Shown here piece after piece: positions 18,216 to 58,382 of a stretch of DNA of 64,000 nt. The translations under genes and the position numbers were made by a program. Origin of the DNA: a virus; the IMG/VR virus record IMGVR_UViG_3300036828_000247, positions 3,961 to 67,960 of that record. One strand, written 5' to 3'. How positions within the stretch are numbered: the stretch's first letter is position 1; every line of letters begins with the position of its first letter. The notes below the pieces were generated by a model. That model ran no database searches and had not been told where the DNA came from. It worked only from the letters and a program-made list of their open reading frames with translations.

Positions 18216-18699
18216 AACGTAAGCCTATTTGCAATGCGAGGATGGTCTGACCTGCAATCCAGTGGAACTGCTGGATTGTGCGCTGGGGAGAGGTGGTACT
18301 GCATTCCAGGGGAACGCAGAAATTGAGCCCGGTGGAGAACAGGTACGCAATCTGCATGCAGGCATTCTTCTGGACTTCTCGCGCACACAGCACTGCCACG
18401 GCAGTCCCTGGCCAGGCACTCCTGGCCACGGGGGCCTCCCCAGGCACTCCGGCACCACCCCCGGTGGGTACCGTCCCTCCGGCGAGGTACCGTCCCTCCT
18501 GCCGACCTACCCGGTCGCGGGTCCTACCGGGTGCGTGAGCGGGCAGTGCCCGCACACTCAGCCCTAGCGCCATAGGCACCCACCCCACGGGGGTGGTAGC
18601 CAGGGTAACCCTCCTGCACCGAACCGCACACGCGCACCGGGACACACGTGCCAGTCCCGAGCCGGCGACCCATCTGGCCACTGTGGTTACTGCAGGTAA

Positions 18700-19220
18700 C
18701 CATACCTTGCCCATGGGTGGTAACTGTGCGTAATGCACAGCCACCGGGCGCTGTTAACTGTGCGTAATGCACCCCATTTCGGCCTTTGTTTCGGCCCCAT
18801 TTACCCTTTACTCTGGGTAATGGCGACATATGCAGACAATGCCGTTCCATCCCTTACCATTCACATAACAATGCATTGGCCTGAATGGTACAGAATAGGT
18901 CGGGATTTCGGTGGTAAAACACCTGGTTGCACCACATGTTTGCACGGAAAGGCGGCCATTTAAATGCATTGTTCGCCATTGTCTCAATGCATTTCCGAAA
19001 GTCGCGTTTTGTCGTCCGAATAGAGAAAATCGCTGTCTTTTACCTTACTTAGGGACCCCGCGCGAGCATCGCCATACCATGCTTACTTACCTTACTTACC
19101 TATATAACCTACTAAATAGGCTCTCCACCAGGCGAAAGGTCCTTTTTCTGTTATTTCACGACCCCACCTTAGTTAGGTAAGTTAGGTAACTAAGCATGGT
19201 ATGGGCGAGCCCCTAAGTAA
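18700..19220. other. AT-rich non-coding control region (candidate origin or packaging region)
   Basis: TAACTGTGCGTAATGCAC twice (18721, 18755); CTTAC/CTTACC runs at 19040-19100 facing GTAAG/GTTAG runs at 19171-19194; lies between divergent gene blocks. Confidence 0.5.
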
Positions 19221-19476
19221 CCCCCTTACGGCCCCGTTTGCTCCGAGCCGAGTCACGTCCCCGCGACCCAGACGGATACCCCAGTTTACCCCACCACCCA
19301 CACCCCAGTGCCCCACCCGGCCCACTGTAGGGCCGCATAACCCCAGCCCCGGCCCACCGACCCCAGCCCGGCCGCGCTCGGGGCGAGCGCGCCGACCCCG
19401 ATGGGCCATATGAACCCCCCAGTTAACGGCCGGCGAAACGGCCGACATTTACCCCAGGAAAGGCCGAGAGAAAGGC

Positions 19477-19505
19477 TAGCCATTCAGCAGGAGCGAGCGT
19501 AGACT
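19477..19505 (+). promoter_or_regulatory. Phage promoter TAGCCA-N17-TAGACT
   Basis: Family motif; ATG 6 nt after the -10. Confidence 0.6.
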
Positions 19506-24630: not shown

Positions 24631-26661
24631 TCACAGCTTCTCCTTGGTCGTGGTCCAGTAGTGCGTGAGGATGCCGCCTACCTGGCCACGGCGTCCCTTG
24701 CGCTCGTTGCGGATACCCATGTCCGCCTTGATGGGATCGTACATGTGGTTGTCCCACTTGAGCCCGGCCGCTAGCGCACGCCGCTTAACCTCCGGCACGG
24801 TGTAGGTGTCCTCCTGATCGAACAGTGCCTCAAGGAACTCACGCCACGCGTTCTTGGCCACCGGCTCAGGCCCACGCCGTTTCGGCTCACCGTTGGCCAG
24901 AATGTCGGCCGTGATACTGACCTCACCGTGCCACTCCACCCGGGGCACAAACCCACCGACATCATCGGCCACGATCTCGCTGTCCTCGATCGTGTACGCC
25001 AGCGCGACATCCTTGCGCCGCTTGACGTTGTTGGCCTTGACAACCGCAATGGCCCGGCCGTCCTCGATCTCATACGACTCGGGCAGCCTACCGGCGATCA
25101 GGTGGGTGCGGGCAACCGCACCGAACGCTACCGACCCTCCACCGCGCGAGGATGCCCCCTGCTTGGCGTCCTTGTTGAAGTGCCTAATTAGCCACGCACC
25201 GCATCGTTCCTGGCCCAGGGCAACAACTAGCGGCGCGAGCGCACGCCGTACCGACGCATCGTTATAGCTGTTGATGCTCTCACCGAGGAACGCCGCCACG
25301 GGGTCCACGATCACCAGGCCGATCTTCCACTGGCGTATCCACTGATGGAACGTCCGCACGTCCTCCGGGAAGGTAATCAGGTTGCCACCGAAGTATGCCT
25401 TCTGCTGCTTCGGCTTCCCGCGCGCCCCAGACACTTCACGCAGCTCAATGTCCGGGGAGAAGATCCGCGCCAGGTCAGCCCCGGCCGCAACCAGCCGATC
25501 GGCCTGGACCGACTCCTGATCCTCGGGCGCGAGGAACAGCACGTTGCCGGCCGGCACCAGCACCTCGCTCTCACACGGCATACCGCGCCCCTGGCTAAAC
25601 CGCGCGGCGATGTCATCACTCACCACAGACTTCCCGGCCCCGGCCTCGGCGTCCACGATCGTGGCGTCACCCTCGGCGATGTAGCGGTGCCAGATCCACT
25701 TTGTCCGCTTGCGCTTCACCGTGGCGAACGAGTGAAGCCCGACGCGAGCAGCAACCTGTGGCGCCAGGGGCCTGCTTGCATCGATCAGCGCGGCTTCCTC
25801 GGGGGTGGCATCCGCGATGGGACGCCGGCCAGGGCGATGGAGCAGCCCACGCACATCGTCCTCGGTCCACGGCTCACTGCGCCGGAACAATGGCATCTGC
25901 TGCGCAATCTTCCAGGCCCGGAAGAACACGTACTCATCATCCTCGTGCGTGCGCGCTAGCTCATCAATCAGCTCCAGCAGCGCACCGTGCTGCTCACCGG
26001 AGATCGCATCCAGGCAGGCCTGCTCGAGCACACCGAGCTCTTCCCGGCCGCGCGAGCCGTTACCGCGCGCACCACGCTTGGCAGCCAGGGCTGCCTCGAT
26101 GTAGGAGCGTATGCCGTCGGAGGACGGATTGCCGTTGGGTGCCACTAGAGCTGACTTGGCTTTGTAGCGCACCATGCGGCCGCCATTGACGGGGTCCTTG
26201 CTCGGGCGCACCGTGGGCGGGATGAAGCAGAAGCCACCCTCGGCCTTGAGGTCAAGACCCGGAGCGAACGATGGGTGCATGCCGATCCCGAGCGGCGCGA
26301 TGTAGAGGTGCGTGCCGCCCGAGGACGTGCTCACCTCCCAGTAAACCTCCGGGCCGTCGTCCCCGAGGTCCCGGGACATCTGGGCAAATGAGAGCTGCCC
26401 GCCTGAGCGCGGATCAATGTCAATAACGTCATACGCAACACCGGTGACTGCGCCCAGCGCGTCCCGGGCATCGAACCTGTCAATGGGCCTGAGATTCGGC
26501 CGTGTCTTCTCCCACGACTTCCAGCGCGGGTCGCGCCTGCCGTCAGGATTGCCGAGTCGGTCCAGGCGTCCAGTGATGATGGGAACACCAAGGCCAACGA
26601 GGGTCCGCGCGTCATCAAGCGCTCGGACTAGCGCTTCATCGCGTGGTACGGTATCATTCAA
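24631..26661 (-). CDS. Bifunctional primase-polymerase fused to a RepA/AAA_25-type helicase
   Basis: DVIDIDPRSGG and TSSGGTHLY (Prim-Pol); AEAGAGKS, LVIVDP, IRHFNK (helicase). Confidence 0.9.
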   Translation of the reverse strand: MNDTVPRDEALVRALDDARTLVGLGVPIITGRLDRLGNPDGRRDPRWKSWEKTRPNLRPIDRFDARDALGAVTGVAYDVIDIDPRSGGQLSFAQMSRDLGDDGPEVYWEVSTSSGGTHLYIAPLGIGMHPSFAPGLDLKAEGGFCFIPPTVRPSKDPVNGGRMVRYKAKSALVAPNGNPSSDGIRSYIEAALAAKRGARGNGSRGREELGVLEQACLDAISGEQHGALLELIDELARTHEDDEYVFFRAWKIAQQMPLFRRSEPWTEDDVRGLLHRPGRRPIADATPEEAALIDASRPLAPQVAARVGLHSFATVKRKRTKWIWHRYIAEGDATIVDAEAGAGKSVVSDDIAARFSQGRGMPCESEVLVPAGNVLFLAPEDQESVQADRLVAAGADLARIFSPDIELREVSGARGKPKQQKAYFGGNLITFPEDVRTFHQWIRQWKIGLVIVDPVAAFLGESINSYNDASVRRALAPLVVALGQERCGAWLIRHFNKDAKQGASSRGGGSVAFGAVARTHLIAGRLPESYEIEDGRAIAVVKANNVKRRKDVALAYTIEDSEIVADDVGGFVPRVEWHGEVSITADILANGEPKRRGPEPVAKNAWREFLEALFDQEDTYTVPEVKRRALAAGLKWDNHMYDPIKADMGIRNERKGRRGQVGGILTHYWTTTKEKL

Positions 26662-29451: not shown

Positions 29452-30672
29452 ATGGAATCAGAGACGATGACGCCGGAGGCTAAGGCCGAGGCCAGGGCAA
29501 AGAAGCTCCACAAGACGATGGAGCGGGTGCGGAAGCTGATCGCGATGGCCGAGGCCGAGATCAGCCCGAGCGCTACCCCCGAGGAACGCGCTGCTACCGA
29601 GGTCGAGCAGAACCGAGCGCGCCAGCAGGCCGATGCGCTGATGCTGGAGAACGCAATCGAAGAGGCCATGGTGAACGACGCCATGCCTGCGTCCCAGCGC
29701 AGCAAGCCGGGGATCCTGGACGTTGCCATCGCGGGTGGCGACACTGACGTGGTCGGCTGGATCGGCTCGCTAGCGACGAACGTTGCGCGGCACTGCCGCT
29801 GTATCATCAAGCTGTACTCCGGCTTCCAGGACGGCCAGTGGATGGCGAGGGTCTACGGGCACGAGGGTGACCTGGCTTACTTCGAGGTCCTGTACACGAC
29901 CGTCCGGCTCCACATGGTTGGCGCGCTGCGGCCCGAGGTTAGGCTGAGCGAGTCGCTGGAGGACAACGCCTACCGGCTGCATAACGCTGGCTACAACTGG
30001 TTCGAGATCGCCCGCATGTACGGCTGGGTGAAGTTCAAGGACCTGCCGTATGGCCGGCGGGAAGAGCTCCGCGAGCGCTGGAACTGGGTCCGCGATTACA
30101 CCGGGAAGAACGATCTGTACTACAACAAGCGCGAGGACCGGGTGGAGCCGAGCCAGAAGGTTGGCGACCCGATCAAGCGTGCCTACGAGCGGGTGATCAA
30201 GGGCCGTGGCGAGCCCTTCCTGAAGATCAGCGCATCCGGCAGCAAGACCTACCGGCGCTCGGCCGCGCGTGGCTACTCAACCCGGCTGTCCCAGCGCCTG
30301 CGGGAAGCGGAGCGCGGCCGGCAGACCGGTGGGGCCGAGGTCCTCCTGGCCAGCGCGGCCCAGGACCTGAACGACTTCTTCCGGGAGGACAACGAGCACG
30401 CCTACTCCCGCTGCCCGCGCTGCCACAAGCTGAGCAGCGACCCGTACACCTGCGAGTTCTGCGGCCAGTTCATCAAGGACAAGCCCGAGGAATGCCCGCG
30501 CTGCGCCAAGAACCCGAGCGGCACCTGCCGTGATCACCCGATGGGGCGGAGCGGCCGGTACAAGGAGGAGCCATTTGACCAGCGCGCGTACCAGGCTGGC
30601 GTGGCCCACGCGAACACGGCCGACCTGGGCACCCAGAACCGTGCCCCCTCGGGCTCCCGCAAGGAAATCTAG
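29452..30672 (+). CDS. DUF2786-like protein with C-terminal Zn ribbons
   Basis: MERVRKLIAMAE...ARQQADALMLENAI; AYQAGVAHANTADLG. Confidence 0.7.
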   Translation: MESETMTPEAKAEARAKKLHKTMERVRKLIAMAEAEISPSATPEERAATEVEQNRARQQADALMLENAIEEAMVNDAMPASQRSKPGILDVAIAGGDTDVVGWIGSLATNVARHCRCIIKLYSGFQDGQWMARVYGHEGDLAYFEVLYTTVRLHMVGALRPEVRLSESLEDNAYRLHNAGYNWFEIARMYGWVKFKDLPYGRREELRERWNWVRDYTGKNDLYYNKREDRVEPSQKVGDPIKRAYERVIKGRGEPFLKISASGSKTYRRSAARGYSTRLSQRLREAERGRQTGGAEVLLASAAQDLNDFFREDNEHAYSRCPRCHKLSSDPYTCEFCGQFIKDKPEECPRCAKNPSGTCRDHPMGRSGRYKEEPFDQRAYQAGVAHANTADLGTQNRAPSGSRKEI

Positions 30673-30709
30673 TAAGGCCCACCCCGGGCGATAACAGGAA
30701 AGAAAGGTA

Positions 30710-31006
30710 TTGCTCATGAACCCATACACCAGCCTTGCGCTCGATGCCTTCAGGAAGTTTGAGGCTGCTAAGCGGCGCGCGGACAAGGCCGAGGCCGGGC
30801 TGACCGAAGCGATGCTGCGCGTGCCAGAAGAGGATCGCACACTCTACGTCATATACACCGAGATCATGCGCTTCGAGCAGGACCGCAAGGACAGCGCGGC
30901 TGCGCATGACGACGAGGGTGTGCAGGCAGCCGAAGCACTTTTGACCGATTACCGCAGGGCCCTCAAGGACCTTGAGGCGGAAACCACCATCAAGGAGAAG
31001 CTGTGA
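30710..31006 (+). CDS. Hypothetical helical protein
   Basis: CCGGGCG motif + GAAAGG RBS. Confidence 0.55.
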   Translation: MLMNPYTSLALDAFRKFEAAKRRADKAEAGLTEAMLRVPEEDRTLYVIYTEIMRFEQDRKDSAAAHDDEGVQAAEALLTDYRRALKDLEAETTIKEKL

Positions 31007-31497
31007 AGAAGATCATTCCGGTTGCTGCGACCCTAGGTGCCCTGACAGCCGTCGTAATTGGTTGCGGTAGCAGTACCCCGGCCGCCAACGAGAGCAGGGC
31101 ACAGCCCGCTACAGCCGCGCCAGCCCCCAGCGCCGCACCGACCGCTAACCCGGACGGCAGCTGGTCCGCTAGCTGCGACACGAGCCTGGGCGCTGGCATC
31201 AACGATGCCAACTACCTGACCGGCGAGGTTGACCTGGTTAACACTGGCAACGTCGGCACGGTCGTGCGGGTCCGGTTTGCCTGGAAGCAGGAGGCCTACC
31301 CCAGCATCGTGCTGTTCAAGACCGTGCGGACTCACCCGGGTCAGCACTACGTCGTGCGGTTCCACTACAACGCCGGAACCTTCGCCACGAGCACGGCCCC
31401 TCTGGACAGGGACCAATCGTGGCAGGAGAACCACGGCTTCCGTATGCCGTGCTCTGCGAGCGCCACGATCATGCGCTCGTTCGGCCCGGCCCAGTAA
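31003..31497 (+). CDS. Putative lipoprotein
   Basis: MKK + hydrophobic core + VIGC lipobox-like; Ala/Pro linker. Confidence 0.65.
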   Translation: MKKIIPVAATLGALTAVVIGCGSSTPAANESRAQPATAAPAPSAAPTANPDGSWSASCDTSLGAGINDANYLTGEVDLVNTGNVGTVVRVRFAWKQEAYPSIVLFKTVRTHPGQHYVVRFHYNAGTFATSTAPLDRDQSWQENHGFRMPCSASATIMRSFGPAQ

Positions 31498-31506
31498 GGA
31501 GGAGCC

Positions 31507-31755
31507 ATGCCAGTATTCCGCGCGACGATCGGCCCGAAGGCCGAGGCCGCAGCACTCGGGCAACACGACGCATTCATCCACGGTGAGCTGACGTTCCGTG
31601 CAGCCACGACGGAGGACGCCCAGACCACGCTGCGCTACCTCACCAACTTCATGTCCCCCGGCAACCTCTGGTTCCGGGTGGAGGAAGTCCCGGAGGCCGA
31701 GGCGCATGGCCCCGAGGTGCCCCTAGGCGGCACGGAGCCAGGCACGCTAGGGTAG
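31507..31755 (+). CDS. Hypothetical protein
   Basis: AAGGAGGAG RBS. Confidence 0.55.
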   Translation: MPVFRATIGPKAEAAALGQHDAFIHGELTFRAATTEDAQTTLRYLTNFMSPGNLWFRVEEVPEAEAHGPEVPLGGTEPGTLG

Positions 31756-31829
31756 GTGAACCACCGCTAGCCCAGCACCACACAGACCACCTGAGGGCCG
31801 TCCGTGCCCCAGGGGAGAAGGAGAAGCAC

Positions 31830-32513
31830 ATGTTCAGTTTCACCAAGGCAGGCCTGGTCGGCCTGGTCGGCTCCGGAGCACTGGCCGCAGCCCTCGTCGG
31901 CGCTGCCAGCCCGGCCGGAGCTTCCACTCACCCGGTCAGCCCGAAGGACGCGACACTGTCGTGCCAGACCGACCCGAACTGCTTCGAGCCCGTGGTCGCG
32001 GTCAGCCAGACCAGCGGCACGGACTTCACCCCGCCCAACGACGCTGCCCTCTCGGTCGTCGGGAGCCAGCTCTGGACCCGGACCCGCAACAGCCTGCAGG
32101 ACGGGACGCAGGACTTCGGCAACATCAGCGTCGGGACGGTCCCGTCATCCGGGCCCGGCGACTACGGATTCACCGCGTTCGACAACTCGCACTACGCGGG
32201 CGACCAGCTCGTGCAGATCACGTCAAGGCCGTTTGCCCAGGACACGGGCAACTGCGGCAACATCACCAAGACGACCCACCTGGGCGTCGTCCAGCCGTGC
32301 GGCACGGGCCTGGGTCAGGTGTTCATCCTGGCACCGACCGCGCCTGGCCTCACCAGCCCGCCCAGCGGGTACCACTTCATGATCAGCGTCCGGCACGCCA
32401 ACAACCTGCAGCGCCACCTCCTGGTGACCGCACAGCAGGACGGCTCGGGCCAGATCTCCGCCATCAACGGCCACAGTGGCCTGCACGAGCAGATGTGGAG
32501 CCAGCTCCCCTAG
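31830..32513 (+). CDS. Secreted protein, possibly ricin-type beta-trefoil
   Basis: Signal peptide ending AGA-S; VVQPCGTG...QVF and terminal QMW. Confidence 0.6.
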   Translation: MFSFTKAGLVGLVGSGALAAALVGAASPAGASTHPVSPKDATLSCQTDPNCFEPVVAVSQTSGTDFTPPNDAALSVVGSQLWTRTRNSLQDGTQDFGNISVGTVPSSGPGDYGFTAFDNSHYAGDQLVQITSRPFAQDTGNCGNITKTTHLGVVQPCGTGLGQVFILAPTAPGLTSPPSGYHFMISVRHANNLQRHLLVTAQQDGSGQISAINGHSGLHEQMWSQLP

Positions 32514-32597
32514 TGCCGCACCCGTAGGCACGCATCCGTAGCACAACACCACACAGGACACCTGGGGGCCGTGTGGCCCCCGGGTGGAAGGAGACGC

Positions 32598-32975
32598 ATG
32601 ATCGGCAAGATCCTCGCGGCCGCAGGAATGACCGCAGCGCTGGCCCTGCCGGTGGCGGCCACAACGGCCGCATCAGCTTCGGCCGCGCACCCCGCGCACC
32701 GCTCGTGCAACATTAGCTGGAAGCACCGGGTCGTCACGGGGTTCGGCGGGAACGTCCAGTCCTGGGTGGACGCGATGAGCCCGCAGGGCTGCGGCACAAT
32801 CCACAGCAAGGCGCTGTGCCGTAACCGGACCGGTGGCGTCACGGAGTACGGCCAGAACATCACGGCCGCGCAGGGTGGCACGTCGGTCGCCCAGTGCCCG
32901 GCCGCGTACTCCCTCGCGACCGGGTGGGTGGTGGTGAACAACGGCACATCCACCGCGCACAAGATTTACCCCTGA
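32598..32975 (+). CDS. Secreted small disulfide protein
   Basis: Signal peptide ending ASA; four Cys. Confidence 0.6.
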   Translation: MIGKILAAAGMTAALALPVAATTAASASAAHPAHRSCNISWKHRVVTGFGGNVQSWVDAMSPQGCGTIHSKALCRNRTGGVTEYGQNITAAQGGTSVAQCPAAYSLATGWVVVNNGTSTAHKIYP

Positions 32976-33017
32976 CCGCAAGCAGGCAAGCCAATGCTGA
33001 TACCAGAGAGGTACGAA

Positions 33018-33335
33018 ATGAACTGGTCACCGCAGAACATGACCGCTACCGGCCGCATCGTCTTCTGTGGCGGCACGGCACCGAGCAACTGCCCCGCGCT
33101 GCGGGTGCTCGACCGTGACGGCCACGTCGTGCCCGAGGACGCCCCGCTGCCCGACGACCCCCGCATCGGCCTGTCCCTGGCCGGGGACGAGGGGCCGGCC
33201 ACCGAGCTGGTCATGCCGCCGCACGAGATCGTGCAGCTCGTGTCCGCTTACGAGAAGGGCCTGACGCCGCAGCTGATGGCCGCCATCGGGATCGACATGC
33301 GCCGCCTGGAGCGCGGCGACTACAACGGCACGTAA
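33018..33335 (+). CDS. Hypothetical protein
   Basis: GAGAGG RBS; CGGTAPSNCPAL. Confidence 0.55.
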   Translation: MNWSPQNMTATGRIVFCGGTAPSNCPALRVLDRDGHVVPEDAPLPDDPRIGLSLAGDEGPATELVMPPHEIVQLVSAYEKGLTPQLMAAIGIDMRRLERGDYNGT

Positions 33336-33391
33336 CTGACCAGGCCTTATCCTGGGCTGCAAAAGTTCCTTACTGAAATCCCCAGAATGGG

Positions 33392-33420
33392 TAGCGCCAG
33401 CGTCCGGGGTAGGGTATACT
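33392..33420 (+). promoter_or_regulatory. Phage promoter TAGCGC-N17-TATACT driving a non-coding region
   Basis: Family motif with upstream AAAAGTTC A-tract. Confidence 0.7.
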
Positions 33421-33426
33421 GGTAGT

Positions 33427-34025
33427 TGTAGGGCCGAGGGGGTGGGCTACCCCGGAAAACTGAATAGCGGTTAGGGGCCGGTAATCAGGGTCGGGCGTTA
33501 AATCCACTGGTTGCCCGGAGGCCGGTCCCGAGGGCGGTGGGTCGCCAGTGTTCCCCAAATCCGGGTTGCTCCCGGGCGGGTTCCGTTGCTGGTGCCAGGC
33601 GATTAGGTCGTGGCCCACCCTCCTCTCCCCCGTGACCGGGGTAGGTAGGAACCAGACGGAAAAGACCGTCATCATGGTAACGCCAGGCCTTAGAGGCTGG
33701 CGGTCCCCGCGAGGGGATTGGGACGCCCAGCTACGGCCCCGGTCATGTTTGGCTGGTTAGCTCAGGAGGAACGATGCCTCCTGCTACGCCAGGGTATCCG
33801 GGAGGACCCTGGGGCGCCAGTTCGTGGGGCTCCGTGTCTAGAATCGCAGGACGGTGCCGGCCGAGGCCGGGCAACGCTGATCTGGGCGCTACACGGAGCC
33901 CCACCCCCTAAGCTCCCGGCCCGGCAAATGTCCTGTCACAGGCTCTGCCGGTAACCGGGGTGGCTGGCGCCATCCTCAACGAGTACCCGCGTTAACTCCG
34001 GGGAAGGGCGAGGGTGGCGCCAGAC
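33427..34025 (+). ncRNA. Candidate large (~600 nt) structured non-coding RNA
   Basis: No credible ORF; more than 10 nested stems including two 14-bp helices and GNRA loops; dedicated promoter. Confidence 0.65.
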
Positions 34026-34045
34026 TGCTATCCCAGGAGGAGCAG

Positions 34046-34291
34046 TTGAGCGAGAGCGAGTGGCGTGCGGTGCCTCCGGGCGGAGCCGAGATGGCCCGCC
34101 TGGAGATTCTGCATCAGCGCTCGGTACACTTCTGGCGCCTCGCCTACTCTGAGTGGCTGACTGTGGCTGTGGGCCTGGGGATGGGCATGTGGCCCGACGA
34201 GTCCGACGCCGAGCGAGCCACGGCCGCTATCCGCGTGGCCATGCAGGCCCAGGACGACTGGTACGACGCCATCGGCGAGACCAGTCTCTAA
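34046..34291 (+). CDS. Hypothetical protein
   Basis: AGGAGG RBS, TTG start. Confidence 0.5.
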   Translation: MSESEWRAVPPGGAEMARLEILHQRSVHFWRLAYSEWLTVAVGLGMGMWPDESDAERATAAIRVAMQAQDDWYDAIGETSL

Positions 34292-34362
34292 ACCGGGTAG
34301 CGCTTACGCCTAGGCGTAAGGTATAGTCAGTTACGTAAGAACCGGGCGAACGAGGAGTTACC

Positions 34363-34797
34363 GTGATCAACTGCCGGAACGGTGGAAAGATCCACCAGCA
34401 CGAGACAGTCACCGAAGTCAAGACCTGCTATAGCGTCCCTCGGGGAGCAACCCAGCGCGCTACCCGTTCTGCTGCCATGCCGGATGTGCCTGCTGGTTAC
34501 TACGCCACCCCCAGCCTCACCGGCAACAATGACCTGGACTTCTGGAAGGTCGACAGGCCGACCGAGGGCCGGTGGGCTGGGCGTACGTTCGTGAAGCGAG
34601 TCATCGGCGGGAAGCCGAACGTCGCAGTGCGCGGCGCGACCGCTAGTTCGGCCCTAGCGGCAATCCTGAAGGCCGACCCGGCGAAGGCAGCTCAGCGGTA
34701 TGGCCAGGAGATCGGCCGCTGCTCCCGCTGTAACCGTCACCTCACCGACGAGACCTCCCGCGCGGCCGGTATGGGCCCCGAGTGCCGGAGTAAGTGA
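34363..34797 (+). CDS. DUF6011-like Zn-binding protein
   Basis: IGRCSRCNRHLTDETSRAAGMGPEC; promoter at 34298 + CCGGGCGAA. Confidence 0.7.
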   Translation: MINCRNGGKIHQHETVTEVKTCYSVPRGATQRATRSAAMPDVPAGYYATPSLTGNNDLDFWKVDRPTEGRWAGRTFVKRVIGGKPNVAVRGATASSALAAILKADPAKAAQRYGQEIGRCSRCNRHLTDETSRAAGMGPECRSK

Positions 34798-34989
34798 TGA
34801 ACTGGGCGCAGTGGGGCGAGCAAATGGGATTCGTAGTCCTTGGCTGGGCTATCGTGATGGTCATTATTTACGTGACATGGAGGCGGATCAAGTGAGCTAC
34901 CAGGAGATGTGCCTCGTGGCCTACTATGACGCGTTCCGGCGCGCGGTGACCGCCGCGCTCCTGATCCTGATGAGCATGGGAGTTATCTG

Positions 34990-35307
34990 ATGCCGGCTGA
35001 CCTTGAGCACCTCTCGCTGAAGTGCCGCCTGTACCGCGATCGGGAGATGGCGCACCAGCCGTGCTCCGGTAGCTGTGACCGTTCCCACGGCACGCCTGGG
35101 ATCTTCTGCGACCAGCCCTGTCAGTGCGGATGTCACGGGGCCGCCCAGGAGCCCGAAGGTGCCTGGCAGTGCAGCGATGGCCACATGTTCCGCTACGAGC
35201 CTCCGCCCGCGTGGCCACCCTTCTGCGCCGTAGCGGGCTGCTTCGCTAGGGGCGAGTTCCGCTGGATCCTCAAGGACGATGTCACCTCAAGAGATTGGAT
35301 CAGGTAA
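34990..35307 (+). CDS. Cys-rich protein
   Basis: CDQPCQCGCH and further CxxC motifs. Confidence 0.5.
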   Translation: MPADLEHLSLKCRLYRDREMAHQPCSGSCDRSHGTPGIFCDQPCQCGCHGAAQEPEGAWQCSDGHMFRYEPPPAWPPFCAVAGCFARGEFRWILKDDVTSRDWIR

Positions 35308-35476
35308 TGCCTACGTTGCGCGGCCGGGGATCAGCCAAGTGGGGCCAACCAGAGGAGTAGCAAGATGGGTAGGAATGACAAGACCGAAAAGCGTAGTTGC
35401 GGATGCATATATGTCGGTTCCGTACTTATCGCCTCGTGCAGGAGCCACCGTAAGTGATAGGGCAATAGGAGGAAGA

Positions 35477-35650
35477 ATGCTAATCGTAATTCTTCAGTTT
35501 CAGGATGATGAGGACCGCACCCCCGAAGTCATCGGCCCGTTCGATGACGAGGCGAAGCGGGGGGCCTGGGTGGAGGAAGTCAGGCACCAGATGCCGTGGA
35601 CTTGGTTCATCATGACCAAGACGTCCGATCCCTGGGAGCCGCAGCGATGA
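35477..35650 (+). CDS. Small hypothetical protein
   Basis: AGGAGG RBS; VIGPFDDEAKR. Confidence 0.55.
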   Translation: MLIVILQFQDDEDRTPEVIGPFDDEAKRGAWVEEVRHQMPWTWFIMTKTSDPWEPQR

Positions 35651-35747
35651 AAATGCCTGACCGACTATGCTTCCGCTGCCGTAAACACTGGGGCAAGCGC
35701 CTCCACTGGTGCATCCGGCTGGCCTGCGACTGCCCTTGCCGAGGCCG

Positions 35748-36287
35748 CTAGCCGTTCTCGCCGTGCTCGAACCGGGCGGAGCGGGCAGCGCTCAGTGCTT
35801 CAACGGCAGACTCAGGAACGCCAGACATGAACCCTTCTAGCAGGAAGCTGATCTCAACGGGGCCGCGCATCTTCTTGCGCATCGTGCCCTGCTCCAGCGG
35901 GCAGCCCGGGGCCACGGTCCACGGAACGGCCCAGAGGTCGCCGTGCTTGTGTAGCTGGACCGGCCAGCGTAGGCTGTCGCGCCTCGGGATGTGCCCTAGG
36001 ACCACGACGTCGGTACCCGTGCCGCAGTCGCTGACTCCCGAGGCTAGGTACAGCAGCCGCAGGGCTGACTCCTGGTCTAGCTGCCCCTTGACCTCGGCCC
36101 ACTGGCCCGAGCCGAGCCAGAAGTCTGGCAGCCACCGGAGGTGCCTGGAACCTATGTCAACCTCCAGCCCCTCCGGCTCATACTGCCACTCAATGCCGGC
36201 GTGGTCCAGGAACACAGCCCAGCGTGCCTCAAGCCGGGACCGCATCCGGAACCCCGCGTACCGCGTCTCAATCGCTCGCACAGTCAT
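35748..36287 (-). CDS. PD-(D/E)XK family endonuclease-like protein
   Basis: RSRLEARWAVFLD...YEPEG...LPDFWL...EVKG. Confidence 0.75.
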   Translation of the reverse strand: MTVRAIETRYAGFRMRSRLEARWAVFLDHAGIEWQYEPEGLEVDIGSRHLRWLPDFWLGSGQWAEVKGQLDQESALRLLYLASGVSDCGTGTDVVVLGHIPRRDSLRWPVQLHKHGDLWAVPWTVAPGCPLEQGTMRKKMRGPVEISFLLEGFMSGVPESAVEALSAARSARFEHGENG

Positions 36288-36341
36288 GGAATAAGGGTAA
36301 CCTAGTCGGAGCACGCTACGCTCAGCGTACAGGGAGGCGCA

Positions 36342-36923
36342 GTGTCTGAACGTGTTGCGGAGATCGTGGCCCTAGAAGGGTACGCGAATGTGGACCGTGA
36401 GGCTCGCAGCGCACAGCGCTGGGCTGCGGCCAGGCTGATCTACGAAGAGCTCCAGGAGAAGTCCTTTGGGGCACTGTCCATCGAGATCAAGGCGGCCGGG
36501 GGCAAGGGCAGCATCGGCCATCTGACGTGCATGCGGCGCTGCTGGGACCTTGTGGTTATCCAGGGAGGTATCGAGCCGGCCGACTACTCTGAGCTGCCCT
36601 TCTTTGGGACTGTCTACAACAGCGATGAGGTGCGCCGCCCAGCCGACCGGAAGCGCAGGAAGGCAACGACCGGCCACACGGACCGGGGGCACCGACACGG
36701 GCAAGGTAAGGGCCCGTGCCTTCACGAGTCCGCGAGCGCCTGGATCACGGCAGCCGACGAGGCCCTGAACACCCTAGCTGAGCACCGGGTAGCCTGGGCG
36801 TTCCTGAAAGGGTCCGACCTAAACCGCCTTAAAGGTCTCATACCGAAGGTGGAAGGGCTGGTTGACCTGATCGAACCTGACCCGGAGATGGAGGCATCCC
36901 GAAAGGGTAGCGCTACCGCGTGA
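36342..36923 (+). CDS. Hypothetical protein, possible DNA-binding
   Basis: GGGAGG RBS; HTH-like KSFGALSIEIKAAGGKGSIGHL. Confidence 0.5.
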   Translation: MSERVAEIVALEGYANVDREARSAQRWAAARLIYEELQEKSFGALSIEIKAAGGKGSIGHLTCMRRCWDLVVIQGGIEPADYSELPFFGTVYNSDEVRRPADRKRRKATTGHTDRGHRHGQGKGPCLHESASAWITAADEALNTLAEHRVAWAFLKGSDLNRLKGLIPKVEGLVDLIEPDPEMEASRKGSATA

Positions 36924-37019
36924 AACAGCGTATCGTTGCGTTAGTTTTACCTACGGTGCCCCGGCCGACAGCCCGACCGGGGCACCTGTCCCAGAACCTA
37001 CCCAAGATAGGAGCCGGGC

Positions 37020-37874
37020 ATGCCTAAGCCTAACTCCGGCCGAGCCGATCGGGCTAGGACGTTCGTCAGCGCGGCCGCAAGCCGTTTCCTGTGGATGATC
37101 GTGCTCGGCGTGATCCTTGCCATCAGTGCCTACTCCCTGTATTTCGTGGCGCGCCACCTGGGCGTGCCCAAGATCTTTGCCATCGGCATGAGCACCGCGT
37201 TCGACGGCACGGCGATGATCCTCGCGCAGCAGAGCCTGGCCCGTGCCATCGCTGGGATCTCCAGCGCAGCGCCGAAGCTGTGGATGTACCTGTTCGCCGG
37301 GCTCTCGTCCTGGCTCAACAGCCTCCATGCCCTCCTCGGGCACGAGACCTTGCTGGCTGTACCGCTGTGGGCCGGCCTGCCCATCGGGGCTGTCGTGGTG
37401 TTCGACATCAACACGTCATTCGCCAGGCGCAAGGCACTCGTCCAGTCGGGCCGCCAGTACGCTGACCGGCTGCCCAAGTTCGGCGTGGCTTCCTGGGTGT
37501 TCTTCCCTGCCAATGCGCTCACGTCGATGCGCACGATCGTGGGCCGACGGATGAAGGCCGTTACCGATCACGCTATCGCCCGCGCAGACGCCCAGCCCGT
37601 TACCGGAAGCGTTACCCGGCCGCGCAAGACGATACCTGCCAGAAGCGTTACTGAACCCGAGCCGGGGAGCGCTACCCCCGAGCCCGCCACAGTAGTCGCT
37701 ACTGTGGAAACGATACGGGAAGAATCGGATGCCCCCGGGCTGTCGCAGATCGTGACTTGCGAGTCCCCGGATTGTGGCGAGACCTTCATCAGGAGGAGGT
37801 CCGATCAGAGGTACTGTGGCTCCCGGTGCCGGACGGCCGCTACTCGGGCTCGTCAGCGGGAAGCGGAGGGGTGA
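37020..37874 (+). CDS. DUF2637/SpdA-like membrane protein with C-terminal Zn finger
   Basis: Four TM segments, AISAYSLYFVA...FDG...WLNSLHA; CESPDCG...YCGSRCR. Confidence 0.7.
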   Translation: MPKPNSGRADRARTFVSAAASRFLWMIVLGVILAISAYSLYFVARHLGVPKIFAIGMSTAFDGTAMILAQQSLARAIAGISSAAPKLWMYLFAGLSSWLNSLHALLGHETLLAVPLWAGLPIGAVVVFDINTSFARRKALVQSGRQYADRLPKFGVASWVFFPANALTSMRTIVGRRMKAVTDHAIARADAQPVTGSVTRPRKTIPARSVTEPEPGSATPEPATVVATVETIREESDAPGLSQIVTCESPDCGETFIRRRSDQRYCGSRCRTAATRARQREAEG

Positions 37875-37950
37875 TGAGCTACCGGCAAGCCGTTACCGGC
37901 GAAGCGATACCCGGAAGCGCTACCGGCGAAGCGCTTCCAGGAAGCGCTAC
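37606..37950 (+). repeat. Cluster of GAAGCGNTAC-type direct repeats (clt-like)
   Basis: Copies at 37606, 37642, 37666, 37901, 37914, 37928 and 37941. Confidence 0.7.
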
Positions 37951-44157: not shown

Positions 44158-44459
44158 AGACTCTCGATGGCCCGGCTACGCGCCGAGTGCTGACCGGATA
44201 CTACCGGCTACCTACAGCTACGGCTCTGCGCATCCTTGAGATTGTCAGCGAGCACGGCGTCAGCGTTGAGCCCTGGGAGAGAGGGGCCGTGACCGTCAGG
44301 GCGGCCGGTAAGAGCCTGTTCACCATTGAGAATGGCGCATCCGGGGCCGTTGATGGACTTCGTCCGGGAAAACCGGCCAAAACGGTAGCGCCAGGCCAGG
44401 GCAGGGGGTATAGTTCTAGCCCTGGACATCATATCAGCACCAAGCAAGGAGTGAGAACA

Positions 44460-44849
44460 ATGGCAAAGGTCGCAGCGCCTGCTGCCGACGAGTACGACGT
44501 CGAGCGTGACCTCACCGGCTACCTGGACAAGGCCCCCACCGCCAAGATGGAGGACTACCACGAGTGGCTGGAAGGGGTCCTGGGTGTCGAGATCGACAAG
44601 GACTCGATGTTCCTGGGCGTCACGCTCTACCCGGACTTCCAGCGGTCGCAGTTCAACCGAGGCCGCACCGCCGCGCGGCGTGAGGCGCGCGCAGCGGGCA
44701 ACGGCGAGGCCGAGGCCGAGACCGAGACCCCGGCCAAGGCCACTCCCGCCAGGCGCGGTCGTCCGCCCGGCAAGGCTGCGGCTGGCAAGGCCACGCCGGC
44801 CAAGCGTGGCCGTGGCAAGGCAGCTGCGGGTACCGCAGCGCCGTACTAG
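44460..44849 (+). CDS. DNA-binding-like protein with basic PAK tail (in-frame upstream extension from 44154)
   Basis: Promoter at 44386-44414 + AAGGAG RBS; YHEWLEGVLG...DFQRS; ATPAKRGRGK. Confidence 0.6.
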   Translation: MAKVAAPAADEYDVERDLTGYLDKAPTAKMEDYHEWLEGVLGVEIDKDSMFLGVTLYPDFQRSQFNRGRTAARREARAAGNGEAEAETETPAKATPARRGRPPGKAAAGKATPAKRGRGKAAAGTAAPY

Positions 44850-44856
44850 AAGGACC

Positions 44857-44895
44857 CCGGAGCACCGGGTTGGCCGACCCAGCCCGGTGCTCTGG
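44857..44895 (+). terminator. Long hairpin before the tRNA (terminator or processing site)
   Basis: CCGGAGCACCGGGTTGG / CCAGCCCGGTGCTCTGG. Confidence 0.5.
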
Positions 44896-44899
44896 TCAA

Positions 44900-44973
44900 G
44901 GCGGAGTAGAGCAGCTCGGTAGCTCGGTTGGCTCATAACCAACAGGTCACTGGTTCAAATCCAGTCTCCGCCC
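44900..44973 (+). tRNA. tRNA-Met (CAT), CCA not encoded
   Basis: Cloverleaf GGCGGAG/CTCCGCC; D arm GAGC/GCTC; anticodon GTTGG-CTCATAA-CCAAC; T arm ACTGG-TTCAAAT-CCAGT. Confidence 0.92.
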
Positions 44974-44991
44974 CGAAGCCGCGTGCGCACA

Positions 44992-58360: not shown

Positions 58361-58382
58361 GCGTTGAGTATACCCCGAACGC

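Follow-up and report, generated by a model that had tools for sequence, protein, structure and literature searches.

A candidate family of large, modular structured RNA upstream of a small gene in probable soil actinophages

We analysed a 64-kb stretch of virus DNA, here called the window, which comprises bases 3961-67960 of the 67,960-nucleotide (nt) IMG/VR virus record IMGVR_UViG_3300036828_000247, and focused on an element at 33427-34045 that would be read on the + strand. An earlier note, made from the sequence alone, had proposed that a large noncoding RNA with its own promoter lies at this place. Based on our results, we are fairly confident that the element is a selected + strand RNA structure and that it represents a new family. 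The fuller reading, in which this is a new family of large modular structured RNA from soil actinophages and the RNA is itself the functional product, acting in trans, has in our judgement an even chance of being right. Such an RNA would consist of five conserved parts, namely a 5' leader, a hairpin P1, a three-way-junction core, a rod hairpin and a 3' CUAAGCUCCC motif, with dispensable helical domains placed between them. The real support for the element is comparative, not energetic.

Conserved parts and covarying helices

The loci compared were the window, L002 and L003, together with near-identical contigs from soil sequencing runs (X2-X5) mapped on 32500-35000. L002 and L003, both uncultivated phage contigs in IMG/VR, were the only related loci in the collections scanned. 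L002 is syntenic with the window: behind the same promoter type (L002 4198-4226) come about 1,255 nt that contain no notable open reading frame (ORF), and then a homolog of the 81-amino-acid (aa) gene that follows the element in the window. The FtsK-like proteins of the two are 63% identical in their best segment and 64% over the full alignment. In L003, GGGTATACT is followed by the first ~390 nt of the element, which the contig end then cuts off; the rest of the element does not appear at the opposite end. Substitution counts given for the soil variants are among the differences listed, with 127 further differences beyond these.

The conserved 5' leader, GUAGUUGUARGG (33421-33433, + strand), is near-identical in the three loci, and at 33431 variants X3 and X5 replace G with A, the base found in L002 and L003. 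The P1 hairpin (33434-33455, +) has a conserved base, CYG-A-GGG / CCC-CRG, and a variable tip that is 14 nt longer in L002; at pair 33435:33454, L002 has U-A where the window and L003 have C-G. X3 and X5 carry three substitutions and one +1/-1 indel pair in P1, and pairing by hand, rather than by a tool, suggests that the hairpin is still possible. P1 is followed by J1 (33456-33471, +), a conserved unpaired segment of GAAAACUGAAUAGCGGU type in the alignments, and by V1 (33472-33529, +), a variable region of 58 nt that is longer in L002 and L003. A 22-nt degenerate pattern for J1, the 5' motif, matched only L002 and L003 among the IMG/VR contigs.

The three-way-junction core (33530-33625, +) contributes 34 consensus pairs. 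It is built from helices 33530-37/33618-25, 33538-43/33612-17 and 33544-49/33588-93, a variable hairpin (33553-33580), an invariant hairpin (33599-33611) and a conserved joiner, GCCAG. In ten of the 34 pairs both bases have changed with pairing preserved (covariation term -4.21); L002, for instance, has G-C at 33547:33590, where the other two loci have A-U. A 23-nt string in the core is identical across the three loci except at one position. Over the whole 5' domain, 90.7% of cells in the 61 consensus pairs of the three loci are paired, compared with 43-52% when partners are slid, and 15 of these pairs have changes on both sides, compared with 1-6 in the slid controls; none of 500 shuffles reached the observed values.

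The second conserved region lies near the 3' end. The rod hairpin (33824-33904, +) has a 14-bp outer stem, conserved internal loops and a YGAG-capped tip, and among its 30 pairs (alignment columns 17-93) seven are kept through double changes. The outer stem shows five consecutive double changes, CCGUG/CACGG versus AGCGC/GCGCU, and the soil-variant changes at 33872-33874 fall in a bulge of the hairpin. Thereafter come the conserved 3' motif (33908-33922, +), in which the 10-mer CUAAGCUCCC (33908-33917), identical in the window and L002, is joined to RGC, and a 3' tail (33923-34023, +) with a 14-bp stem, 33964-33977/34010-34023. Leader positions 33426-33439 are additionally complementary to 33915-33927, just after CUAAGC (duplex energy -20.5). 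Position 33435:33918 is C-G in the window and U-A in L002, a single covariation that competes with P1; the leader may thus have two alternative pairings, or the complementarity may be a coincidence.

The earlier note had listed five long-range stems and a set of local hairpins, and all five stems and all hairpin halves stand exactly where it had placed them. Comparison separates the long-range stems from one another. The perfect 14-bp stem 33824/33891 is strongly backed, being the stem in which the five consecutive double changes occur, and the stem 33964/34010, present in the 3' tail, is neither backed nor contradicted by L002. The other three have no comparative support. The 3' partners of 33474/33734 and 33493/33723 lie within a 125-nt block that is missing from variant X3, and 33505/33545 clashes with the covarying helix 33544-33549/33588-33593; changes at 33507 and 33508 in this last stem are uncompensated among the differences listed, which leave out one X3 difference within 33245-33620. 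Covariation, whose absence the note would have taken as evidence against an RNA, is present in the 5' domain, the core and the rod hairpin.

The natural variants further show how the conserved parts are separated. In X3, 33621-33745 (125 nt) is replaced by 5 letters, and this block nearly coincides with V2 (33631-33747, +), a self-contained, optional multi-branch domain that is closed by GUGACCGGGG/CCCCGGUCA and contains the GACGG, CGCCAG and GCGA-tetraloop hairpins. The same UGACCG/CGGUCA stem also closes a domain in L002. X3 also carries 90 letters in place of 3 at 33907-33911. L002 is ~630 nt longer overall, with a core-to-rod spacing of ~760 nt versus ~200 nt in the window, and its element contains no internal repeat. 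V3 (33751-33822, +), a three-way junction with CAGGAGG/CCUCCUG and CCAGGG..CCCUGG hairpins, gave no confident alignment with L002. Because X3 lacks one whole helical domain and L002 has ~630 nt extra, the element is, as judged from these variants, modular, with whole helical domains lost or gained.

Comparison of the strands points to an RNA read on the + strand. The consensus fold reaches -57.3 kcal/mol with a covariation term of -1.66 on the + strand, and -35.66 kcal/mol with a term of +0.34 on the reverse complement. Many of the invariant pairs are G-U, which would become A-C on the opposite strand or in a DNA cruciform. For L002 the minimum free energy (MFE) is -628 on the + strand versus -607 on the - strand.

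These observations bear on a different explanation, namely that the stretch is GC-rich spacer DNA shaped by recombination, in which shared blocks reflect recent common descent and no RNA function is under selection. The large indels between close variants, the very small number of relatives and a G+C content of 66%, at which stable folds are common, would all be compatible with it. Against it, the double compensatory changes are concentrated in helices and the strands are asymmetric, with invariant G-U pairs. Furthermore, X3 has at most one substitution in the core (33530-33620; one X3 difference within 33245-33620 stands outside the differences listed) versus nine in the preceding 108 nt, and, between the window and L002, a 59-column block within the element reaches 88% identity while neighbouring protein genes differ by ~25-30% at the DNA level. 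We therefore regard unselected spacer DNA as improbable, and selected RNA structure as the better account.

Wider searches returned little else. By blastn, none of the three elements (window, L002 and L003) matched INPHARED phages and the window element matched no plasmid, and blastn of 30000-37900 against phages returned only 8 records, all through ~100 nt inside the DUF6011 gene. Neighbouring proteins (81 aa, 113 aa and 406 aa) used as anchors in IMG/VR found no relative; the FtsK-like protein, searched singly and as an alignment, found L002 only, and its tblastn against phages found nothing. A scan of IMG/VR with a core 20-mer returned L003 only, a rod-hairpin pattern returned L002 only, and two element patterns had 0 matches in genome contigs. 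Twelve loci with the core pattern in metagenome contigs were rejected as chance, as they shared only the 20-29-nt seed.

Folding energy and coding potential

The earlier note had proposed a folding z-score as a check, and the result is marked and strand-specific. The element has an MFE of -326.2 kcal/mol on the + strand, with a z-score of -5.75 (0/20 shuffles), and of -290.7 kcal/mol on the - strand, with a z-score of -2.06; its + strand ranks second of 320 strand-windows of 619 nt across the whole window after GC correction. The over-stability is distributed unevenly. The 5' part (33427-33528) scores -0.36 and the core -0.81, V2 (taken as 33627-33748) scores -5.12 (0/200 shuffles), V3 -2.41 (3/200 shuffles), the rod hairpin -4.46 and the tail (33905-34045) -3.32.

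Two other regions are worth noting here. The most over-stable 619-nt window of the 64 kb, again GC-corrected, lies at 18401-19420 on the - strand only (residual z -3.49 at 18801 and -2.57 at 18401), and it overlaps 18754-19502, one of few stretches that lack a long stop-free frame. At the end of the gene read from the promoter at 44407 (44460-44974 region), a long GC-rich hairpin that has no U-run abuts tRNA-Met; the 44460-44974 stretch is 72% identical to L002 16389-16851, and its z-score of -3.9 shows that coding DNA in this genome readily passes as structured.

The claim that ~620 nt lack an ORF led by a ribosome-binding site (RBS) stood in part. No ORF longer than 101 aa occurs in 33336-34045, whereas an AGGAGG-N4-ATG at 33764-33776, placed in a hairpin loop, opens a 45-aa ORF (33774-33911). 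This is the hairpin CAGGAGG/CCUCCUG (33763-33783), which displays AGGAGG and AUG in its loop region and mimics the real RBS at 34034, the two regions sharing a 13-nt repeat at 85% identity. That the element encodes small or decayed proteins, through a 101-aa ORF on the - strand (33370-33675) and 70-, 78- and 45-aa ORFs on the + strand, is an explanation with something in its favour: ORFs of 45-101 aa exist, AGGAGG stands 4 nt ahead of the ATG at 33774, and a weak GC periodicity is compatible with two of the ORFs.

The comparative evidence speaks against this explanation, which we consider hardly credible. Four ORFs (101, 70, 78 and 53 aa) had no Pfam or PHROG match, the 45-aa ORF lying outside that scan. 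In the 45-aa ORF, GC peaks at codon position 2, the wrong periodicity, and L002 has nothing that corresponds to this ORF. Frame-specific similarity to L002 and L003 is absent: in tblastx of the window against these loci the shared blocks reach similar scores in each of the six frames, and the relation between frames shifts from one conserved block to the next. The indels of X3 (+C after 33445, -1 at 33449 and +T after 33529) add up to a net +1; the +T after 33529 breaks the 101-aa ORF, and the loss of 33621-33745 deletes the start of that ORF together with the 3' end and stop of the 70-aa ORF. The 18 soil-variant substitutions listed for 33421-34045, often adjacent, split 9/6/3 over the phases. 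Coding-type conservation, which the earlier note had named as a reason to abandon a noncoding RNA, was therefore not what we found; on these alignments conservation is at the nucleotide level, not frame-specific. Gene calling by a crude GC3 measure reached only 47% of the window and was of no use for judging gene density.

Several points weigh against the reading of the element as a functional RNA and should be considered together. The consensus structures were taken from the same alignments in which pairs were later counted, so that the pairing figures lean toward structure, and three loci with near-identical variants are too few for a proper covariation significance. The two most conserved modules, the 5' part and the core, are thermodynamically ordinary, and a coding control with a terminator (44415-44899) itself reaches a z-score of -3.9; therefore energy alone proves little in this genome. 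The GC periodicity mentioned above, mild in degree, is found at 33520-33600 and 33720-33830, and the element was not among the stretches that a scan singled out for lacking any stop-free frame of 125 codons, and is unexceptional in this respect. The sequencing runs listed as carrying the stretch include no RNA run. Finally, a simple scan found no + strand terminator between the element and the 81-aa gene, which fits a cis-acting leader equally well.

Promoter, transcription unit and the 81-aa gene

The promoter that the earlier note had placed ahead of the element is present (33390-33420, +), with a -35-like GGTAGCGC (33390-33397) and an extended -10 GGGTATACT (33412-33420), and transcription would start near 33427. 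The motif GGTAGCGC-N-GGTATA occurs at 33390-33418, 34296 and 44384, three matches where 0.01 are expected, and none of 100 shuffles reached three. A looser pattern, GGTAGC..GGGTATAST, has four + strand copies, at 33413, 34320, 40038 and 44407. The GGGTATAST -10 family also has a - strand copy at 58374, and its four + copies have GGTAGC ~22 nt upstream. Similarly, GGGTATA(C/G)T stands before the element in L002 and L003; GGTAGCGC is present in the L002 promoter and absent from L003. Among the differences listed for the soil variants, none falls within 33390-33420.

What follows the promoter differs among the four copies. Those at 34320 and 40038 have near-identical leaders of ~35 nt that end in the RBS, ACCGGGCGAAYGAGGAG, and from the copy at 44407 it is ~45 nt to an ordinary gene (ATG 44460) with an AAGGAG RBS. 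From the copy at 33413 it is 620 nt to the next credible start, TTG 34046 behind AGGAGG.

That start belongs to the 81-aa gene (34024-34291, +; RBS AGGAGG at 34035-34040), whose homolog follows the element in L002 with 52% identity. All seven substitutions listed for 34046-34291 (X3, most also in X5) are at third codon positions. Because of this third-position bias and the conservation, the 81-aa gene is, on sequence grounds, a real gene. Its product is modelled as a helical hairpin with a predicted local distance difference test (pLDDT) score of 86, and the fold matches of the model were generic helical hairpins only (best E 0.83). The protein belongs to no family: a profile searched against 5.8 billion proteins returned two clusters, its own and that of L002.

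The position of this gene raises an alternative that we consider unlikely but take seriously. As a simple scan of 32500-35000 found no + strand terminator, and thus none between the element and the gene, the element may be a giant cis-acting 5' leader that governs how the mRNA is processed, translated or kept stable and does nothing beyond this, whether as a sensor, a thermometer or a protective 5' structure. The linkage is fixed, with the gene directly 3' of the element at every locus where the 3' side is visible (the window, L002 and X3). The RBS and start lie in or beside a small hairpin at 34026-34045 in the window, and the next family promoter, at 34320, comes only after the gene. Against a leader, 620-1,255 nt for a gene of 81-108 aa is out of scale beside the ~35-45-nt leaders of the sister promoters. 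The 5' end and core, far from the RBS, are the most conserved parts and the RBS-proximal part is the least conserved, and whole domains come and go while the gene is kept. We favour an RNA with a role of its own because its scale exceeds that of the gene and of the sister-promoter leaders, because its most conserved parts lie far from the RBS, and because its domains evolve like expansion segments.

The genomic setting suggests a further alternative, a replication element in which a promoter-driven structured pre-primer or R-loop transcript would act at an origin. ColE1 RNA II and the T4 origin transcripts are models for such transcripts. The element combines a promoter with a long non-coding stretch inside the DNA-metabolism arm, between a primase-polymerase (24631-26661) and an SNF2 helicase (40262), and the helical hairpin modelled for the linked 81-aa protein is a shape that we take to be shared with Rop, although the fold search gave no specific match. 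These points are countered by the absence of iterons or notable direct repeats at the element, and of any in L002, by the absence of an AT-rich stretch, by a cumulative GC-skew minimum that lies elsewhere, near 25-26 kb, and by the two-fold length variation between relatives. An origin would thus be a very improbable explanation, and a functional RNA transcript remains our preferred one.

The window as a whole has a G+C content of ~64%. Genes of the record include those for a portal and an HK97-type capsid, both on the - strand, a DUF2637 protein and a weak FtsK-like protein (score under the Pfam cut-off). Judged by portal protein, Streptomyces phage Dagobah is the nearest cultured phage (41% identity), so that the host is probably an actinomycete. 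The annotation of Dagobah leaves no gap of more than ~270 nt unannotated and none comparable to the element, so that this phage offers no experimental stand-in. The stretch is present, whole or in part, in five soil-metagenome studies, and the element is known from metagenomes alone.

Two neighbouring regions also vary among the soil runs. X3 and X4 join 32593 to 33019 through 6 other letters and so lack a 134-aa gene (32571-32975) located immediately before the neighbour of the element. Variation in the DUF6011 gene (34363-34797) among these runs far exceeds that in its neighbours; in X3 the region 34366-34800 has 46 differences in 287 nt and several replaced segments.

Comparison with known large RNAs and possible roles

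To our knowledge, bacterial and phage RNAs of more than ~500 nt with conserved structure are few, comprising GOLLD, ROOL, OLE and a handful more, and those known have turned out to be remarkable. The earlier note had suggested a member or a new class of such RNAs; a new class fits our results, and membership of GOLLD or ROOL found no support in Rfam. At gathering score, Rfam 15 matched only a tRNA-Met (44900-44974) in the window. With E values up to 10, 33300-34100 gave three sub-threshold matches, to a CRISPR repeat model (a 17-nt hairpin), MEG3 and RAGATH-5, all of which we rejected as chance. The GOLLD and ROOL covariance models were among those without a match in either search, as were the 6S, Ms1, raiA, HEARO and OLE models. 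RNase P RNA, tmRNA, SRP RNA, 6S, Ms1, raiA, HEARO and OLE are all in Rfam 15. The earlier statement that hallmarks of RNase P, tmRNA, SRP and introns are lacking agrees with these searches and with ARAGORN, which found no tmRNA in the window. A group I or II intron was likewise rejected: no Rfam match was found, the upstream gene stops at 33335 with the promoter following, and an intron fails additionally in that the upstream genes differ between the window and L002.

In general architecture the element resembles GOLLD and ROOL, being ~600 nt to more than 1 kb long and phage-borne, with many GNRA-type loops and multi-branch junctions, and with a conserved part joined to variable parts. GOLLD often lies beside tRNA genes in phage DNA, whereas the only tRNA in the window is ~10.9 kb from the element. 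Unlike GOLLD and ROOL, the element stands directly 5' of a conserved small gene. In this respect it resembles OLE, a large RNA of conserved structure with genes for its protein partners close by. Unlike OLE, it has no Rfam match, comes from a different host group and is linked to an 81-aa protein without a family.

Processive-antitermination leaders (put of HK022 and EAR) are about 70-120 nt long. The element is similar to them in that structure starts a few bases from the predicted transcription start and conservation peaks at the extreme 5' end, and it differs in its length of 620-1,255 nt and in having a second conserved module near the 3' end.

Some published work bears on these comparisons. 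The available text of a bioRxiv report (10.1101/2024.12.08.627333) describes GOLLD and ROOL as RNA-only nanocages, and reports RNA-only assemblies for all of GOLLD, ROOL and OLE. As far as those descriptions extend, the element resembles GOLLD, ROOL and OLE in kind, and it shares with them none of the defining features tested. The names GOLLD and ROOL record lake, Lactobacillales and rumen, in contrast to the probable high-GC soil actinophage from which the element comes. A further study (PMC10690425) presents structured-RNA candidates of 29-151 bases from IMG/VR, with at least three unique IMG/VR regions required. Those candidates share with the element the data source and the use of covariation evidence in phage intergenic regions, and a sub-domain of the element might be among them. 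Literature on phage, actinobacteriophage, Streptomyces-phage and metagenomic structured RNAs contained, in the text available, no description of such an RNA.

Based on this evidence we propose that the element is read on the + strand from a promoter of the small phage family, that transcription would extend through into the conserved 81-aa gene, and that the function would reside in the RNA itself. The RNA may bind a partner from the phage or the host during infection, serving as a folded scaffold or a decoy in the way suspected for GOLLD and ROOL, and be more than a simple gene switch. A stronger proposal, which we hold to be doubtful, is that the element is the first of a class of giant ornate RNAs specific to soil actinophages, 0.6-1.25 kb in length, in which long-range pairing between the leader and the 3' CUAAGCUCCC motif would hold the conserved three-way-junction core and the rod hairpin together, and that the RNA acts alone. 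Members of that class would work as an RNA-only assembly, as a ribonucleoprotein scaffold with the 81-aa helical protein, or as a decoy for a host factor or defence. The two alternative partners of the leader, the local P1 and the distal motif, would in that case form a built-in conformational switch.

A further unrelated family from high-GC soil phages would extend the set of large RNAs to a new host group. In addition, the natural size series, with one domain lost, 90 nt gained or ~630 nt gained, would be useful for dissecting the role of the core.

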